From Escherichia coli (GTDB lineage Bacteria > Pseudomonadota > Gammaproteobacteria > Enterobacterales > Enterobacteriaceae), in assembly GCF_003334305.1 (NCBI RefSeq), contig NZ_QOWS01000001.1: a DNA stretch of 64,000 nucleotides, one strand, 5' to 3'. Shown piece by piece: positions 3,024-34,865 of this stretch. How positions within the stretch are numbered: the first letter of the stretch is position 1; the number at the start of each line of letters is the position of its first letter. A program made the position numbers and the translations under genes. The notes under the pieces were generated by a model that was given only the letters and a program-made list of their open reading frames with translations, did not search any database and had not been told where the DNA came from.

Positions 3024-9870
<6,847 letters not shown>

Positions 9871-12575: not shown

Positions 12576-15414
12576 TTGAAATACCTTGCTTCTTTTCGTA
12601 CAACCCTGAAAGCCTCGCGCTACATGTTCAGAGCATTGGCGTTAGTGCTCTGGCTGTTGATTGCTTTTTCATCCGTTTTTTACATCGTTAATGCGTTACA
12701 TCAGCGAGAATCGGAAATTCGTCAGGAATTTAATCTGAGTTCCGATCAGGCTCAGCGCTTTATTCAACGCACCTCTGATGTGATGAAAGAGCTGAAGTAC
12801 ATCGCCGAAAATCGCTTATCGGCAGAAAACGGTGTGCTTTCCCCGCGTGGACGAGAAACGCAGGCGGATGTGCCTGCGTTTGAACCGCTGTTTGCCGACT
12901 CCGATTGTTCCGCAATGAGTAACACCTGGCGAGGTTCTCTGGAGTCATTGGCGTGGTTTATGCGCTACTGGCGCGATAATTTTTCTGCGGCTTACGATCT
13001 CAACCGGGTATTTTTAATCGGCAGTGATAACCTCTGCATGGCCAATTTCGGTCTGCGTGATATGCCAGTGGAACGCGATACCGCGTTGAAAGCTTTGCAT
13101 GAACGCATCAATAAATATCGAAATGCACCACAAGATGATAGCGGCAGTAACCTCTACTGGATCAGCGAAGGTCCGCGCCCTGGCGTCGGGTATTTTTACG
13201 CGTTGACGCCAGTTTATCTGGCGAACCGGTTGCAGGCGCTTTTGGGTGTCGAGCAGACCATCCGGATGGAGAACTTTTTCTTACCGGGTACGTTGCCGAT
13301 GGGGGTTACCATTCTTGATGAAAATGGTCATACCCTGATTTCGCTTACCGGACCAGAAAGTAAAATTAAGGGCGATCCTCGCTGGATGCAGGAACGCTCC
13401 TGGTTTGGCTATACGGAAGGGTTCCGGGAGCTGGTGCTGAAGAAAAATCTGCCACCCTCATCGCTAAGCATCGTGTATTCGGTGCCGGTTGATAAGGTGC
13501 TGGAACGCATTCGCATGTTGATCCTTAACGCAATTTTGCTGAATGTGCTTGCCGGAGCTGCATTGTTTACTCTCGCACGGATGTACGAGCGACGTATTTT
13601 CATTCCGGCGGAAAGCGACGCCCTGCGACTGGAAGAACATGAGCAGTTCAATCGCAAGATTGTCGCCTCCGCGCCAGTGGGTATCTGCATTTTGCGTACC
13701 GCTGATGGCGTCAATATTTTAAGTAACGAACTGGCGCATACCTATCTCAATATGCTTACGCATGAGGACCGCCAACGACTGACGCAAATTATCTGTGGGC
13801 AGCAGGTCAATTTTGTTGATGTCCTGACCAGCAACAATACCAATCTGCAAATCAGCTTCGTCCATTCGCGCTATCGTAATGAAAACGTGGCCATTTGTGT
13901 GCTGGTGGATGTTTCTTCGCGCGTGAAGATGGAAGAGTCGTTGCAGGAGATGGCACAAGCAGCGGAACAGGCGAGCCAGTCAAAATCGATGTTCCTTGCC
14001 ACCGTCAGTCATGAGCTGCGAACGCCGCTGTATGGCATTATCGGTAACCTGGATCTGTTGCAAACCAAAGAGTTACCGAAAGGCGTCGATCGGCTGGTGA
14101 CGGCAATGAACAACTCTTCCAGCCTGTTGTTGAAAATTATCAGCGATATTCTCGATTTCTCGAAGATTGAATCGGAACAGTTGAAGATCGAACCGCGTGA
14201 GTTTTCACCGCGTGAAGTGATGAACCACATCACCGCCAACTATTTACCGCTGGTGGTACGCAAGCAGTTAGGCTTGTACTGCTTTATTGAACCGGATGTG
14301 CCAGTGGCCTTAAATGGCGACCCGATGCGTTTACAGCAGGTCATCTCCAACCTGTTGAGTAACGCCATAAAATTCACCGATACCGGCTGTATAGTTTTGC
14401 ATGTCCGCGCTGATGGCGATTATCTCTCTATCCGTGTTCGCGATACCGGCGTGGGGATTCCGGCGAAAGAAGTGGTGCGCTTGTTTGATCCCTTCTTCCA
14501 GGTCGGAACGGGCGTACAGCGAAACTTCCAGGGGACCGGTCTGGGTCTGGCGATTTGTGAAAAACTGATCAGCATGATGGACGGCGATATCTCGGTAGAT
14601 TCAGAACCGGGAATGGGCAGCCAGTTTACCGTGCGTATTCCGTTGTACGGCGCTCAGTACCCGCAGAAAAAAGGCGTGGAAGGGTTGAGTGGTAAACGCT
14701 GCTGGCTGGCGGTCCGCAATGCGTCGCTCTGTCAGTTCCTGGAAACCAGTTTGCAGCGCAGCGGCATCGTCGTTACAACATACGAAGGGCAGGAACCGAC
14801 TCCCGAAGATGTGTTAATTACTGACGAGGTAGTGAGTAAAAAATGGCAGGGTAGAGCGGTAGTGACCTTCTGTCGTCGCCATATTGGTATTCCGCTGGAG
14901 AAAGCGCCAGGGGAGTGGGTACACAGTGTGGCTGCCCCGCATGAGCTACCGGCATTGTTGGCGCGTATTTATTTGATCGAGATGGAGAGCGACGATCCTG
15001 CTAACGCTCTGCCGTCGACGGACAAAGCGGTCAGCGATAATGACGATATGATGATTCTGGTCGTGGATGATCATCCGATTAACCGACGTCTGCTGGCAGA
15101 TCAGTTGGGATCGTTGGGCTATCAATGTAAAACCGCGAATGATGGTGTCGATGCGCTTAATGTACTTAGCAAGAATCATATTGATATCGTGCTTAGCGAC
15201 GTCAACATGCCAAATATGGATGGTTACCGCTTGACGCAACGCATTCGTCAGTTGGGACTGACGTTGCCGGTAATCGGAGTAACTGCTAATGCGTTGGCTG
15301 AAGAGAAGCAGCGGTGTCTGGAGTCCGGTATGGACAGCTGCCTGTCGAAGCCGGTAACGCTGGATGTGATAAAACAGACGCTGACGGTATATGCCGAGAG
15401 GGTCAGGAAATCGC

Positions 15415-15425: not shown

Positions 15426-15620
<195 letters not shown>

Positions 15621-22046: not shown

Positions 22047-23111
22047 ATGAAAAACGCCACATGCTTAGCTGACGATCAACGCTGGCAATCTGTCTTAGCC
22101 CGCGACCCGAATGCCGACGGCGAATTCGTTTTCGCCGTGCGCACCACAGGCATCTTTTGCCGTCCGTCTTGCCGCGCCAGACATGCCTTGCGGGAAAATG
22201 TCTCCTTCTACGCAAATGCCAGCGAGGCACTCGCCGCCGGATTTCGCCCCTGCAAACGCTGCCAACCTGATAAAGCCAATGCCCAGCAACATCGGTTGGA
22301 TAAAATCACCCACGCGTGTCGACTGCTGGAACAGGAAACGCCTGTAACGTTGGAAGCCTTAGCCGACCAGGTGGCGATGAGTCCATTTCATCTACATCGG
22401 TTGTTTAAAGCGACTACCGGAATGACGCCTAAAGCCTGGCAACAGGCCTGGCGCGCTCGCCGTTTGCGCGAATCGCTGGCGAAAGGGGAGAGCGTGACGA
22501 CGTCTATTCTTAACGCCGGATTCCCCGACAGCAGCAGTTACTACCGCAAAGCCGATGAAACGCTGGGCATGACGGCTAAACAATTCCGTCACGGTGGCGA
22601 AAATCTGGCGGTGCGTTACGCGCTGGCTGATTGTGCGCTGGGTCGTTGCCTGGTGGCAGAAAGCGAGCGGGGGATTTGCGCGATATTGCTGGGCGATGAT
22701 GACGCGACACTAATCAGCGAGTTGCAGCAGATGTTTCCCGCTGCCGACAACGCGCCTGCCGATCTGATGTTTCAGCAACATGTGCGTGAAGTGATCGCCA
22801 GCCTCAATCAACGCGATACGCCGCTGACGTTACCGCTGGACATTCGCGGCACTGCTTTTCAGCAACAAGTCTGGCAGGCACTGCGCACGATACCTTGCGG
22901 TGAAACCGTCAGTTATCAGCAACTGGCTAACGCCATCGGCAAACCGAAAGCGGTACGGGCCGTTGCCAGCGCCTGTGCCGCCAACAAGCTGGCTATCATA
23001 ATACCCTGTCATCGGGTGGTCCGTGGTGATGGCACACTTTCCGGTTACCGCTGGGGCGTGTCGCGTAAAGCGCAACTGCTGCGCCGCGAAGCTGAAAATG
23101 AGGAGAGGTAA
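22047..23111 (+). CDS. ada: Ada bifunctional regulator / O6-methylguanine-DNA methyltransferase
   Basis: 354-aa ORF; N-terminal Cys cluster (FCRPSCRARHA...CKRC) and C-terminal PCHRV active-site motif. Confidence 0.95.
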   Translation: MKNATCLADDQRWQSVLARDPNADGEFVFAVRTTGIFCRPSCRARHALRENVSFYANASEALAAGFRPCKRCQPDKANAQQHRLDKITHACRLLEQETPVTLEALADQVAMSPFHLHRLFKATTGMTPKAWQQAWRARRLRESLAKGESVTTSILNAGFPDSSSYYRKADETLGMTAKQFRHGGENLAVRYALADCALGRCLVAESERGICAILLGDDDATLISELQQMFPAADNAPADLMFQQHVREVIASLNQRDTPLTLPLDIRGTAFQQQVWQALRTIPCGETVSYQQLANAIGKPKAVRAVASACAANKLAIIIPCHRVVRGDGTLSGYRWGVSRKAQLLRREAENEER

Positions 23112-23761
23112 TGTTGGATCTGTTTGCCGATGCTGAACCGTGGCAAGAGCCACTGGCGGCTGGAGCGGTAATTTTGCACCGTTTTGCTTTTAACGCTGCG
23201 GAGCAACTAATCCGCGATATTAATGACGTTGCCAGCCAGTCGCCGTTTCGCCAGATGGTCACCCCCGGGGGATATACCATGTCGGTGGCGATGACCAATT
23301 GTGGGCATCTGGGCTGGACGAGCCATCGGCAAGGTTATCTCTATTCGCCCATTGATCCGCAAACAAATAAACCGTGGCCCGCCATGCCACAGAGTTTTCA
23401 TAATTTATGTCAACGTGCGGCTACGGCGGCGGGCTATCCAGATTTCCAGCCAGATGCTTGTCTTATCAACCGCTACGCTCCTGGCGCGAAACTGTCGCTG
23501 CATCAGGATAAAGACGAACCGGATCTGCGCGCGCCAATTGTTTCTGTTTCTCTGGGCTTACCCGCGATTTTTCAATTTGGTGGCCTGAAACGTAATGATC
23601 CGCTCAAACGTTTGTTGTTGGAACATGGCGATGTGGTGGTATGGGGCGGTGAATCGCGGCTGTTTTATCACGGCATTCAACCGCTGAAAGCGGGGTTTCA
23701 TCCACTCACCGGCGACTGCCGCTACAACCTGACATTCCGTCAGGCAGGTAAAAAAGAATAA
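23111..23761 (+). CDS. alkB: AlkB Fe(II)/2-oxoglutarate-dependent DNA/RNA demethylase
   Basis: 216-aa ORF whose ATG overlaps the ada stop (TAATG). Confidence 0.95.
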   Translation: MLDLFADAEPWQEPLAAGAVILHRFAFNAAEQLIRDINDVASQSPFRQMVTPGGYTMSVAMTNCGHLGWTSHRQGYLYSPIDPQTNKPWPAMPQSFHNLCQRAATAAGYPDFQPDACLINRYAPGAKLSLHQDKDEPDLRAPIVSVSLGLPAIFQFGGLKRNDPLKRLLLEHGDVVVWGGESRLFYHGIQPLKAGFHPLTGDCRYNLTFRQAGKKE

Positions 23762-23836: not shown

Positions 23837-25480
23837 ATGGAACTTCTTGTACTTGTCTGGCGGCAGTATCGCTGGCCATTTATCAGTGTGATGGCGCTAA
23901 GCCTCGCCAGTGCGGCATTAGGCATTGGCTTAATTGCTTTTATCAATCAGCGCCTTATCGAAACGGCGGATACCAGTCTGCTGGTATTGCCGGAGTTTCT
24001 GGGATTATTGCTGCTGTTGATGGCAGTCACTCTCGGATCGCAACTGGCGCTCACCACTTTGGGGCATCACTTCGTTTACCGACTGCGTAGTGAATTTATC
24101 AAGCGGATTCTGGATACCAACGTCGAGCGCATTGAACAACTCGGTAGCGCCTCGTTGCTGGCGGGATTAACCAGCGATGTGCGCAATATCACCATTGCTT
24201 TTGTGCGTCTTCCGGAACTGGTGCAGGGGATCATTCTCACTATCGGTTCCGCGGCGTATCTGTGGATGCTGTCGGGCAAAATGTTGCTGGTAACGGCTAT
24301 CTGGATGGCGATCACCATCTGGGGTGGTTTTGTACTGGTGGCGCGGGTGTACAAACATATGGCGACCCTGCGTGAAACCGAAGACAAGCTGTACACGGAT
24401 TTTCAAACCGTACTCGAAGGGCGCAAAGAGCTGACTCTGAACCGGGAACGCGCCGAGTATGTGTTTAACAACCTCTACATCCCCGATGCGCAAGAGTATC
24501 GCCATCATATTATTCGCGCAGACACCTTCCATCTTAGCGCCGTGAACTGGTCAAACATCATGATGCTGGGCGCTATCGGCCTGGTGTTCTGGATGGCGAA
24601 CAGTCTCGGTTGGGCTGATACCAACGTTGCTGCGACCTATTCGTTGACGCTGTTATTCCTGCGTACGCCGCTGCTTTCGGCGGTTGGCGCATTGCCGACG
24701 CTGCTGACGGCGCAGGTGGCGTTTAACAAGCTGAACAAATTCGCGCTCGCGCCTTTCAAAGCTGAGTTTCCGCGCCCGCAGGCTTTTCCCAACTGGCAAA
24801 CGCTGGAGCTGCGTAACGTGACGTTTAGCTATCAGGATAACGCGTTTTCCGTTGGGCCGATTAACCTCACCATTAAACGTGGCGAGCTGCTGTTTCTGAT
24901 TGGTGGCAACGGTAGTGGAAAATCGACGCTGGCGATGTTGCTGACGGGCTTGTACCAGCCACAAAGCGGCGAAATCTTGCTGGATGGCAAACCTGTCAGT
25001 GGCGAACAACCGGAAGATTATCGCAAACTGTTTTCGGCAGTGTTTACCGATGTCTGGCTGTTTGATCAACTGCTGGGGCCGGAGGGTAAACCCGCTAACC
25101 CGCAACTGGTTGAGAAGTGGCTGGCGCAGCTGAAAATGGCTCATAAGCTTGAGTTAAGCAACGGGCGTATTGTTAACCTGAAGTTATCAAAAGGGCAGAA
25201 AAAACGCGTGGCGCTGTTGCTGGCGCTGGCAGAAGAACGCGATATTATCCTGCTGGATGAATGGGCGGCGGATCAGGATCCACACTTCCGTCGTGAGTTT
25301 TATCAGGTGTTGCTGCCGCTGATGCAGGAGATGGGTAAAACTATTTTCGCTATCAGTCATGATGATCATTACTTTATCCACGCCGACCGCCTGCTGGAAA
25401 TGCGCAATGGGCAACTTAGCGAGCTGACGGGCGAAGAGCGCGATGCCGCTTCGCGTGATGCCGTTGCCCGGACGGCATAA
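23837..25480 (+). CDS. yojI: ABC transporter YojI (fused permease/ATPase; microcin J25 efflux)
   Basis: 547-aa ORF; N-terminal transmembrane region, C-terminal Walker [10 protein letters not shown] and signature LSKGQKKR. Confidence 0.9.
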
Positions 25481-25685
25481 TATTACGACGCTGACCTGGC
25501 GGACTGCTGCCGTCAGGTCAATATGCTAAAAATCCCTTCATTTCTAATAACCCTATAATTAATCAACGAAATTATAATGTTTCTAAAATTAGAATATAAT
25601 TTATAAACATTATTTAAATGTTGTTACTTAAGTGTTACCGTTGATGCCGCGCAAATCTCACCTGCAATAAAGCGACTAAAAGTAA

Positions 25686-27344
<1,659 letters not shown>

Positions 27345-27345
27345 T

Positions 27346-27478
27346 GATGTGCCACATCCGGCATGGTATGCCGGATGTGGCGTATGCTGATAAGACGCGC
27401 CAGCGTCGCATCAGGCACCGGCTCGGGCGTTAGATGTCGGATGCGGCGTGACCGCCTTATTCGGCCTACGGGGTGCCG
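27346..27478. repeat. Cluster of three REP-type palindromic units between convergent mqo and eco
   Basis: GCCACATCCGGCATGGTATGCCGGATGTGGC (perfect palindrome), then ...GATAAGACGCGCCAGCGTCGCATCAGG..., then GATGTCGGATGCGGCGTGACCGCCTTATTCGGCCTAC. Confidence 0.8.
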
Positions 27479-34241: not shown

Positions 34242-34865
34242 GTGGGTATGCTTGAAGCCAGAGAGTTACTTTGTGAGCGGGATGAACGAACCTTATTTAG
34301 TGGCTTGTCATTTACGCTGAACGCAGGAGAGTGGGTACAAATCACCGGTAGCAACGGCGCGGGGAAGACAACGCTTCTCCGTTTGCTGACTGGGTTGTCT
34401 CGCCCTGACGCTGGCGAGGTTCTCTGGCAAGGGCAGCCCTTGCATCAGGTACGCGACAGCTACCATCAAAACCTGTTATGGATAGGCCATCAGCCGGGGA
34501 TCAAAACCCGGCTGACGGCGTTAGAAAATCTGCACTTTTATCATCGCGATGGCGATGCCGCACAATGTCTGGAAGCCCTGGCGCAGGCCGGGCTTGCCGG
34601 ATTCGAAGATATTCCGGTAAATCAACTTTCTGCCGGGCAACAACGCCGCGTCGCTTTAGCGCGTCTGTGGCTGACCCGTGCCACGTTATGGATCCTCGAC
34701 GAGCCTTTTACCGCGATTGACGTTAACGGCGTCGATCGTCTGACCCAGCGTATGGCGCAGCATACGGAGCAGGGGGGGATTGTGATTCTGACTACCCACC
34801 AGCCGCTCAACGTTGCTGAAAGTAAAATTCGCCGCATTTCACTGACGCAAACGGGGGCCGCATGA
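34242..34865 (+). CDS. ccmA: CcmA, cytochrome c maturation ABC ATPase
   Basis: 207-aa ORF, GTG start; Walker [10 protein letters not shown]. Confidence 0.93.

Follow-up and report, generated by a model that had tools for sequence, protein, structure and literature searches.

Genetic context of the yojI-mqo junction

The DNA analyzed here, a 64,000-nucleotide stretch of Escherichia coli contig NZ_QOWS01000001.1 that we call the window, carries ada, alkB, yojI, and mqo in this order, all on the + strand, in a region that is E. coli K-12-like. Coordinates of the genes and of the features discussed below are collected in Table 1. The names yojI and mqo, which a preliminary description had given to the two genes flanking the site of interest, are correct according to the ORF list and the RefSeq annotation of the identical sequence. 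A 341-nt query across the hairpin site was 100% identical to K-12-type strains and had a single occurrence in 5422 of 5426 complete genomes. In MNNG tiling arrays, ada, alkB, and yojI form one induced transcript, and mqo is not named with them (PMC6505713).

Table 1. Genes and features around the yojI-mqo junction (positions in the window)
Feature	Position	Strand	Basis or remark
ada	22047-23111	+	ORF list and RefSeq annotation of identical sequence
alkB	23111-23761	+	ORF list and RefSeq annotation of identical sequence
yojI CDS (microcin J25 efflux ABC transporter, 547 aa)	23837-25480	+	ORF list and RefSeq annotation
yojI stop codon, TAA	25478-25480	+	
5' arm of hairpin, TGACCTGGCGG	25492-25502	+	Sequence, folding, repeat finder
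Loop, ACTGCTG	25503-25509	+	RNAfold adds the pair C25504-G25509, leaving a 4-nt loop
3' arm of hairpin, CCGTCAGGTCA	25510-25520	+	T25513 makes a G·U wobble
Steady-state 3'-end peak of the yojI transcript	25521-25531, dominant 25528	+	RNAtag-seq sheets of the TRS supplements (PMC10687069)
AT-rich, strongly G-depleted untranslated stretch	25526-25603	+	12 C, 3 G; C/G 4.0, top 0.01% of 78-nt windows
mqo CDS, next same-strand gene	25698-27344	+	ORF list and RefSeq; about 177-178 nt past the hairpin

A stable hairpin directly follows yojI

Immediately after yojI, positions 25492-25520 read TGACCTGGCGG-ACTGCTG-CCGTCAGGTCA, and the repeat finder reported two 11-nt arms that are 91% complementary and 7 nt apart. 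The sole mismatch between the arms, G25499/T25513, is a G·U wobble in + strand RNA, and therefore all 11 stem positions pair in this RNA. The preliminary description had presented the element as an imperfect 11-bp stem-loop that starts 12 nt past the yojI stop; both points hold, with 11 nt lying between the TAA and the stem. The + strand RNA folded at -19.5 kcal/mol, compared to -7.9 ± 2.2 kcal/mol for shuffled sequences (z = -5.35), with 0 of 200 shuffles as good, whereas the fold on the - strand reached -14.4 kcal/mol, because the wobble there turns into a C·A mismatch. Counting both strands, the window holds 17 hairpins with at least 11 uninterrupted pairs, compared to 0.83 ± 1.0 in dinucleotide shuffles, and stems as long as that of yojI are about 20-fold more common in the window than in the shuffles. 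Since these counts lie far above those of the shuffles, the element is not a chance inverted repeat.

Other structures are present nearby and elsewhere in the window. A second hairpin of 8 pairs (AUGCCGUU/GACGGCAU) at 25458-25478 (+) lies in the last yojI codons and extends to the T of the TAA stop. It may simply reflect conservation of the codons for ...DAVARTA, and its tandem fold with the 25492-25520 hairpin reaches -32.5 kcal/mol. A switch in which 25464-25477, at the end of the yojI ORF, would pair with 25508-25521 was considered and rejected: with the 5' arm blocked, the fold drops to -17.1 kcal/mol, compared to -32.5 kcal/mol for the native one. A perfect 14-bp palindrome (GCCACATCCGGCAT...ATGCCGGATGTGGC, -26.3 kcal/mol) at 27351-27381, located 7 nt past the mqo stop at 27344 and followed by no T-tract, is probably the analogous 3' structure of mqo. 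Further long uninterrupted hairpins without T-tracts, with 11-16 pairs and energies of -16 to -27 kcal/mol, were seen at 6312-6341, 12856-12881, 15443-15481, 15583-15614, 34486-34519, and 62758-62784, and the pair near 15.5 kb looks REP-like.

REP/BIME extragenic palindromes can act as 3' mRNA stabilizers, and the yojI hairpin shares with them its nature as an extragenic palindrome at a gene 3' end that is able to block exonucleases. Unlike them, it bears no REP consensus and is confined to this Escherichia locus. When a 55-nt hairpin query was run in a sensitive BLAST search (E ≤ 10, word size 11), it had exactly one match in each of 5419 E. coli genomes, and no second copy with up to 3 mismatches was found in the window. 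We therefore rejected membership in the REP/BIME family, whose elements occur in many dispersed copies. In a search of Rfam at a permissive E-value, the best overlapping matches scored 15.9-24.9 bits, compared to gathering scores of 48.6-80, and are chance matches below threshold; RefSeq annotates no feature under the hairpin.

A published 3' end of the yojI transcript maps 8 nt past the stem

Mapping of transcript 3' ends had been named as the way to check the element, and a published end does exist at this position. In the RNAtag-seq sheets of the supplements to the TRS paper (Nat Commun 2023), for MG1655 in LB, yojI has a "Primary" 3' terminus on the - strand of the genome with a peak at 2306921-2306931 and a dominant position at 2306924, the adjusted p values in the three TRS libraries being 2.6e-22, 5.6e-28, and 1.9e-15 (PMC10687069). 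A second TRS table, based on earlier RNAtag-seq data, places the yojI terminus at 2306922-2306931 with the same dominant position, and there it is significant in two of three libraries (PMC10687069). As these sheets report steady-state RNA from MG1655, they do not prove the point of release.

Genome positions were converted as window position = 25480 + (2306972 - genome position), with the yojI CDS at 2306972-2308615 (-) in the TRS tables (PMC10687069). The dominant end thus corresponds to 25528, 8 nt beyond the last stem base, and the steady-state yojI RNA ends in ...GGUCAAUAUGCUA. Two cross-checks of the mapping agree on this position. A genome with K-12 numbering (H32) puts 25481-25535 at 2306971-2306917, and in the thrL attenuator row of the TRS table the fold sequence ends at the dominant position +1, with the "U-tract" sequence starting at the dominant position -10. 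The legend of Supplementary Data 3 of PMC10687069 gives spans of -40 to +10 for the fold sequence and -20 to +10 for the U-tract sequence, but the thrL row actually covers -50 to +1 and -10 to +20, respectively; this discrepancy matters for converting the table to coordinates.

The TRS fold sequence for the yojI terminus includes exactly the 25492-25520 hairpin, and the maximum U-tract listed there is 3 (PMC10687069). The TRS table contains many primary termini that are U-poor and lie behind a stable hairpin, as at talB, mog, dnaJ, and folA (PMC10687069). The available supplement text of Adams 2021 has no entry for the yojI 3' locus, nor do the TERMITe and Booth 2013 supplements. A full-text literature search for yojI combined with terminator or Rho returned nothing specific to the locus.

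The hairpin lacks the tail of a canonical intrinsic terminator

Intrinsic terminators combine a stable hairpin with a U-tract of about 7-8 nt, and their transcripts end about 7-9 nt past the stem. With canonical terminators, the yojI element shares a stable, G+C-containing stem-loop of typical size (11-12 pairs) and energy and, in the steady-state data of the TRS sheets, a 3' end 8 nt after position 25520. It differs from them in that no U-tract of 7-8 nt follows directly 3' of the stem, that the stem base contains A and U, its three pairs being U-A, G-C, and A-U, and that a terminator scan of 25300-25800 called nothing. Consistent with the earlier remark that no T-tract follows the hairpin, the tail (ATATGCTAAA, AUAUGCUA, ATATGCTAAAAA) contains 3 T (U) in its first 8 nt, none of them adjacent, and the sequence upstream of the stem, TATTACGACGC, has no A-tract. 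By a d'Aubenton-Carafa-type formula, the T-tract of this tail scored 0.93, compared to 4.3-5.3 for three canonical terminators located elsewhere in the window. With Sugimoto parameters, the RNA:DNA hybrid formed by the final 9 nt of the K-12 tail came to -9.2 kcal/mol, compared to -1.6 kcal/mol for U9, which ranks it at the 16th percentile of weakness among the 9-mers of the window; the ancestral tail, AAUAUUCUA, gave -6.6 kcal/mol, among the weakest 2-3% of window 9-mers.

One possible, if doubtful, explanation of the mapped end is that the hairpin works as a weak, non-canonical intrinsic terminator. Together with its A/U-rich tail (AAUAUGCUA in K-12; AAUAUUCUA in most Escherichia), it would free some polymerases 8 nt past the stem, perhaps assisted by NusA or NusG, and Rho or processing would handle the remaining polymerases. 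The position of the steady-state end, at the canonical distance of intrinsic release from the stem base, and the weak hybrid of the ancestral tail both speak for such release, and Dar & Sorek state that intermediates of this kind may exist (PMC6061677). Against it stand the three scattered U residues, the low T-tract score, and the rank of the K-12 hybrid, as well as a stem base that is not G+C-rich and the empty consensus scan.

The spacer downstream of the hairpin is AT-rich and G-depleted

In the RNA after the hairpin, each 60 nt contain 2-3 G, a count that falls under the 1st percentile, and the C/G ratio is 3.7-5.5 in 25520-25590. The spacer is about 85% A+T and is single-stranded in folds. 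In the 78-nt window at 25526, the C/G ratio of 4.0 comes with just 12 C (15% C) and with no regularly spaced chain of C residues, and the region right after the hairpin fails a RhoTermPredict-like spaced-C rule, which leaves the evidence for a rut mixed. The G-depleted stretch listed in Table 1 may serve for Rho loading or as an RNase E target. The hairpin, for which a role as a Rho-dependent signal had also been suggested, would not itself be that signal in any case, because in the known model the rut site lies downstream of the hairpin. The sole promoter-like consensus match in the spacer (25638-25609, - strand; GTAACA-18-AATAAT, 9 of 12 positions) is oriented antisense toward the yojI 3' end, and the count of such matches is at chance level.

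The same composition bears on an explanation in which the yojI/mqo boundary has no dedicated terminator. Transcription would read through into mqo, RNase E would cut the AU-rich spacer, and exonucleases would trim the upstream fragment back to the hairpin, which would shield it just as it would a terminated transcript. We regard this as improbable: the A+T content of the spacer, its lack of structure in folds, and the weak rut evidence are in keeping with it, but the MNNG-induced ada-alkB-yojI transcript is not reported to reach mqo (PMC6505713).

The hairpin is specific to Escherichia and its stem is maintained

We compared 80 yojI loci across Enterobacteriaceae, using one genome per species. 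Among these loci, the hairpin is restricted to Escherichia (L002-L006), and mqo directly follows yojI only in Escherichia. Citrobacter youngae (L008, 4250-5686) has a gene for an MgtE-like transporter of 478 aa between yojI and mqo. The MgtE-like gene was also noted at L036, L045, L064, L076, L077, and L079, and in several genera it starts 30-45 nt past the yojI stop with no hairpin. Escherichia is without mgtE between yojI and mqo, and therefore both the yojI-mqo junction and the hairpin are lineage-specific. In many other genera, what comes after yojI is either a REP-like element or a hairpin that is unrelated to this one and carries a canonical T-tract. At about 30 of some 70 loci, the first 9 nt include 5 or more T; that orthologues so commonly carry a canonical hairpin and T-tract lends some weight to weak intrinsic release in Escherichia as well. 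By these comparisons, the 3' end of yojI has been re-equipped several times, a turnover that agrees with the observation of Dar & Sorek that terminators switch type easily (PMC6061677).

Within Escherichia, we aligned 13 sequences, each of which either has mqo after yojI or lies on a contig that stops short of where mqo would be seen. The loop occurs as ACTGCTG, ATCGCTG, CTCGCTG, GCTACTG, or ATCTATG, while the stem is kept and the 7-bp spacing is constant. Of the alignment columns, 5 of 7 vary in the loop, 5 of 22 in the stem, and 16 of 179 elsewhere in the spacer (loop versus spacer, P = 0.0002), the loop being the most variable segment of the yojI-mqo intergenic region. In yojI-sense RNA, the changes in the stem leave the bases able to pair: in the 3' arm, C became T three times independently, each time yielding G·U, and one compensatory double change converts G-C to A-U. 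A formal covariation test of the stem was not significant, with one compensatory pair and 102 of 500 shuffles reaching the observed score, and we therefore relied on the direction of the substitutions and on the contrast between loop and stem. These patterns suggest that stem evolution preserves pairing on the sense strand, which is supportive evidence and not proof.

The direction of the substitutions also bears on whether the palindrome acts at the level of DNA, as the operator of a dimeric mqo regulator or as a recombination or cruciform site, and not as an RNA structure. In its ancestral form, the element is an inverted repeat of 11 perfectly matched bp whose spacer is always 7 bp long, and it lies upstream of the mqo promoter region. 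The three one-sided stem substitutions, however, give G·U on the yojI-sense RNA and A·C on the other strand and break the DNA symmetry, the RNA 3' end in the TRS sheets maps directly behind the element, and the mqo start codon is 178 nt downstream of the site. The genome holds no other copy, RefSeq has no annotation there, and the palindrome is not known to match any motif. A DNA-level role is, in our estimate, very improbable.

Comparison with other Escherichia shows two K-12 alleles to be derived: T25513, which makes the stem wobble, and G25526 in the tail. Position 25513 is C in the outgroups and in about half of E. coli, and 2789 of 5419 E. coli genomes have the 55-nt sequence in its K-12 haplotype. 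T25513 weakens the stem and G25526 (T to G) weakens the tail, and both make the element less terminator-like. MG1655 carries this derived haplotype, yet its 3' end is still mapped there in the TRS sheets, which argues against weak intrinsic release.

In L005 (Escherichia sp. MOD1-EC7003; 4185-6641), two stem pairs are broken (GGAAG), and similarity to the K-12 spacer ends right after the hairpin (...GGTCAA), where Rhs-type ORFs replace the spacer; these include the core-end motif ...YISPDPIGL, and short ORFs resembling toxin or immunity genes come after them; mqo is not found within 2.5 kb. In L088 (E. coli RIVM_C036569; 298-523), several 1-nt homopolymer indels, one of them an extra G in the 3' arm, were observed; these are probably assembly errors and not real variants.

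Proposed role of the hairpin at the yojI 3' end

The hypothesis that 3' stem-loops protect Rho-dependent E. coli transcripts reportedly goes back to Peters et al. in 2012. Dar & Sorek described a class of Rho-terminated transcripts that have precise steady-state 3' ends just past stable stem-loops; these stem-loops have neither U-rich tails nor upstream A-tracts, C is enriched over G downstream of them, and once transcription has terminated diffusely farther downstream, they block PNPase and RNase II (PMC6061677). The yojI element shares with this class a stable stem soon after the stop codon, the absence of a U-rich tail and of an upstream A-tract, and, according to the TRS sheets, a precise end past the stem. 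Downstream of it, C also exceeds G, but the resemblance on this point is mixed, since C makes up just 15% of that sequence. It differs further in that for yojI we infer downstream termination, the involvement of Rho, and exonuclease trimming alike. By analogy, the hairpin best fits this established class, in which stem-loops without a U-tract fix the steady-state 3' end by stopping 3'-5' exonucleases. The suggestion in the preliminary description that the hairpin is an RNA stability element is thus supported, as a 3'-end-defining reading, by the direct published 3'-end data (PMC10687069) and by its fit to this class (PMC6061677).

We consider it reasonably probable, although far from certain, that the element is a protective 3'-end hairpin with termination downstream of it, most likely by Rho. 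Under this model, the hairpin would define and protect the 3' end of yojI mRNA, including that of ada-alkB-yojI read-through transcripts. The terminating ribosome would halt at the stop codon, 25478-25480, and the stem would fold just beyond the ribosome footprint. RNA polymerase would mostly pass the hairpin, because there is no U-tract for release, and transcription would end within the 177-nt untranslated, G-poor, AT-rich spacer ahead of mqo; Rho would be the most likely cause, with endonucleolytic cutting of read-through RNA as an alternative. The 3'-to-5' exonucleases PNPase and RNase II would then trim the tail until the 11-12-bp stem blocks them, which would leave the observed steady-state end 8 nt beyond the stem. 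We count in favor of this protective model the mapped end, the stable stem, the missing U-tract, the conservation of the stem, and the ada-alkB-yojI transcript without mqo. Counted against it are an end 8 nt past the stem, which is exactly the intrinsic release site, the C-poor putative rut, and the weak covariation. In all of the RNA-level models, the hairpin fixes and stabilizes the yojI 3' end.

In a far more speculative reading, to which we give very little credence, the hairpin would insulate mqo, a respiratory gene, from the ada-alkB-yojI transcript that alkylation induces, and would do so to a tunable degree: the polymorphisms common in E. coli (G·U or G-C in the stem; G or U in the tail) would set strain-specific read-through into mqo. 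If true, it would couple DNA-damage or microcin-efflux expression to the levels of a TCA-cycle enzyme.

The yojI hairpin is a real, functional-looking, and ordinary feature of the best-studied bacterial genome. The yojI 3' terminus and its fold are already known from the published TRS tables, and the class to which it is compared is well described. As one more clear example of a 3' hairpin without a U-tract, it has little importance beyond annotation; there, yojI and the ada-alkB-yojI transcription unit gain a defined 3' boundary at window position 25528, which is MG1655 position 2306924 in the TRS tables. It also offers an evolutionary contrast, in that orthologous yojI genes elsewhere often lead to canonical terminators or straight into mgtE, whereas Escherichia has a U-less hairpin of its own. 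The two K-12 alleles that weaken stem and tail could help to separate the contribution of the hairpin to termination from its contribution to stability.
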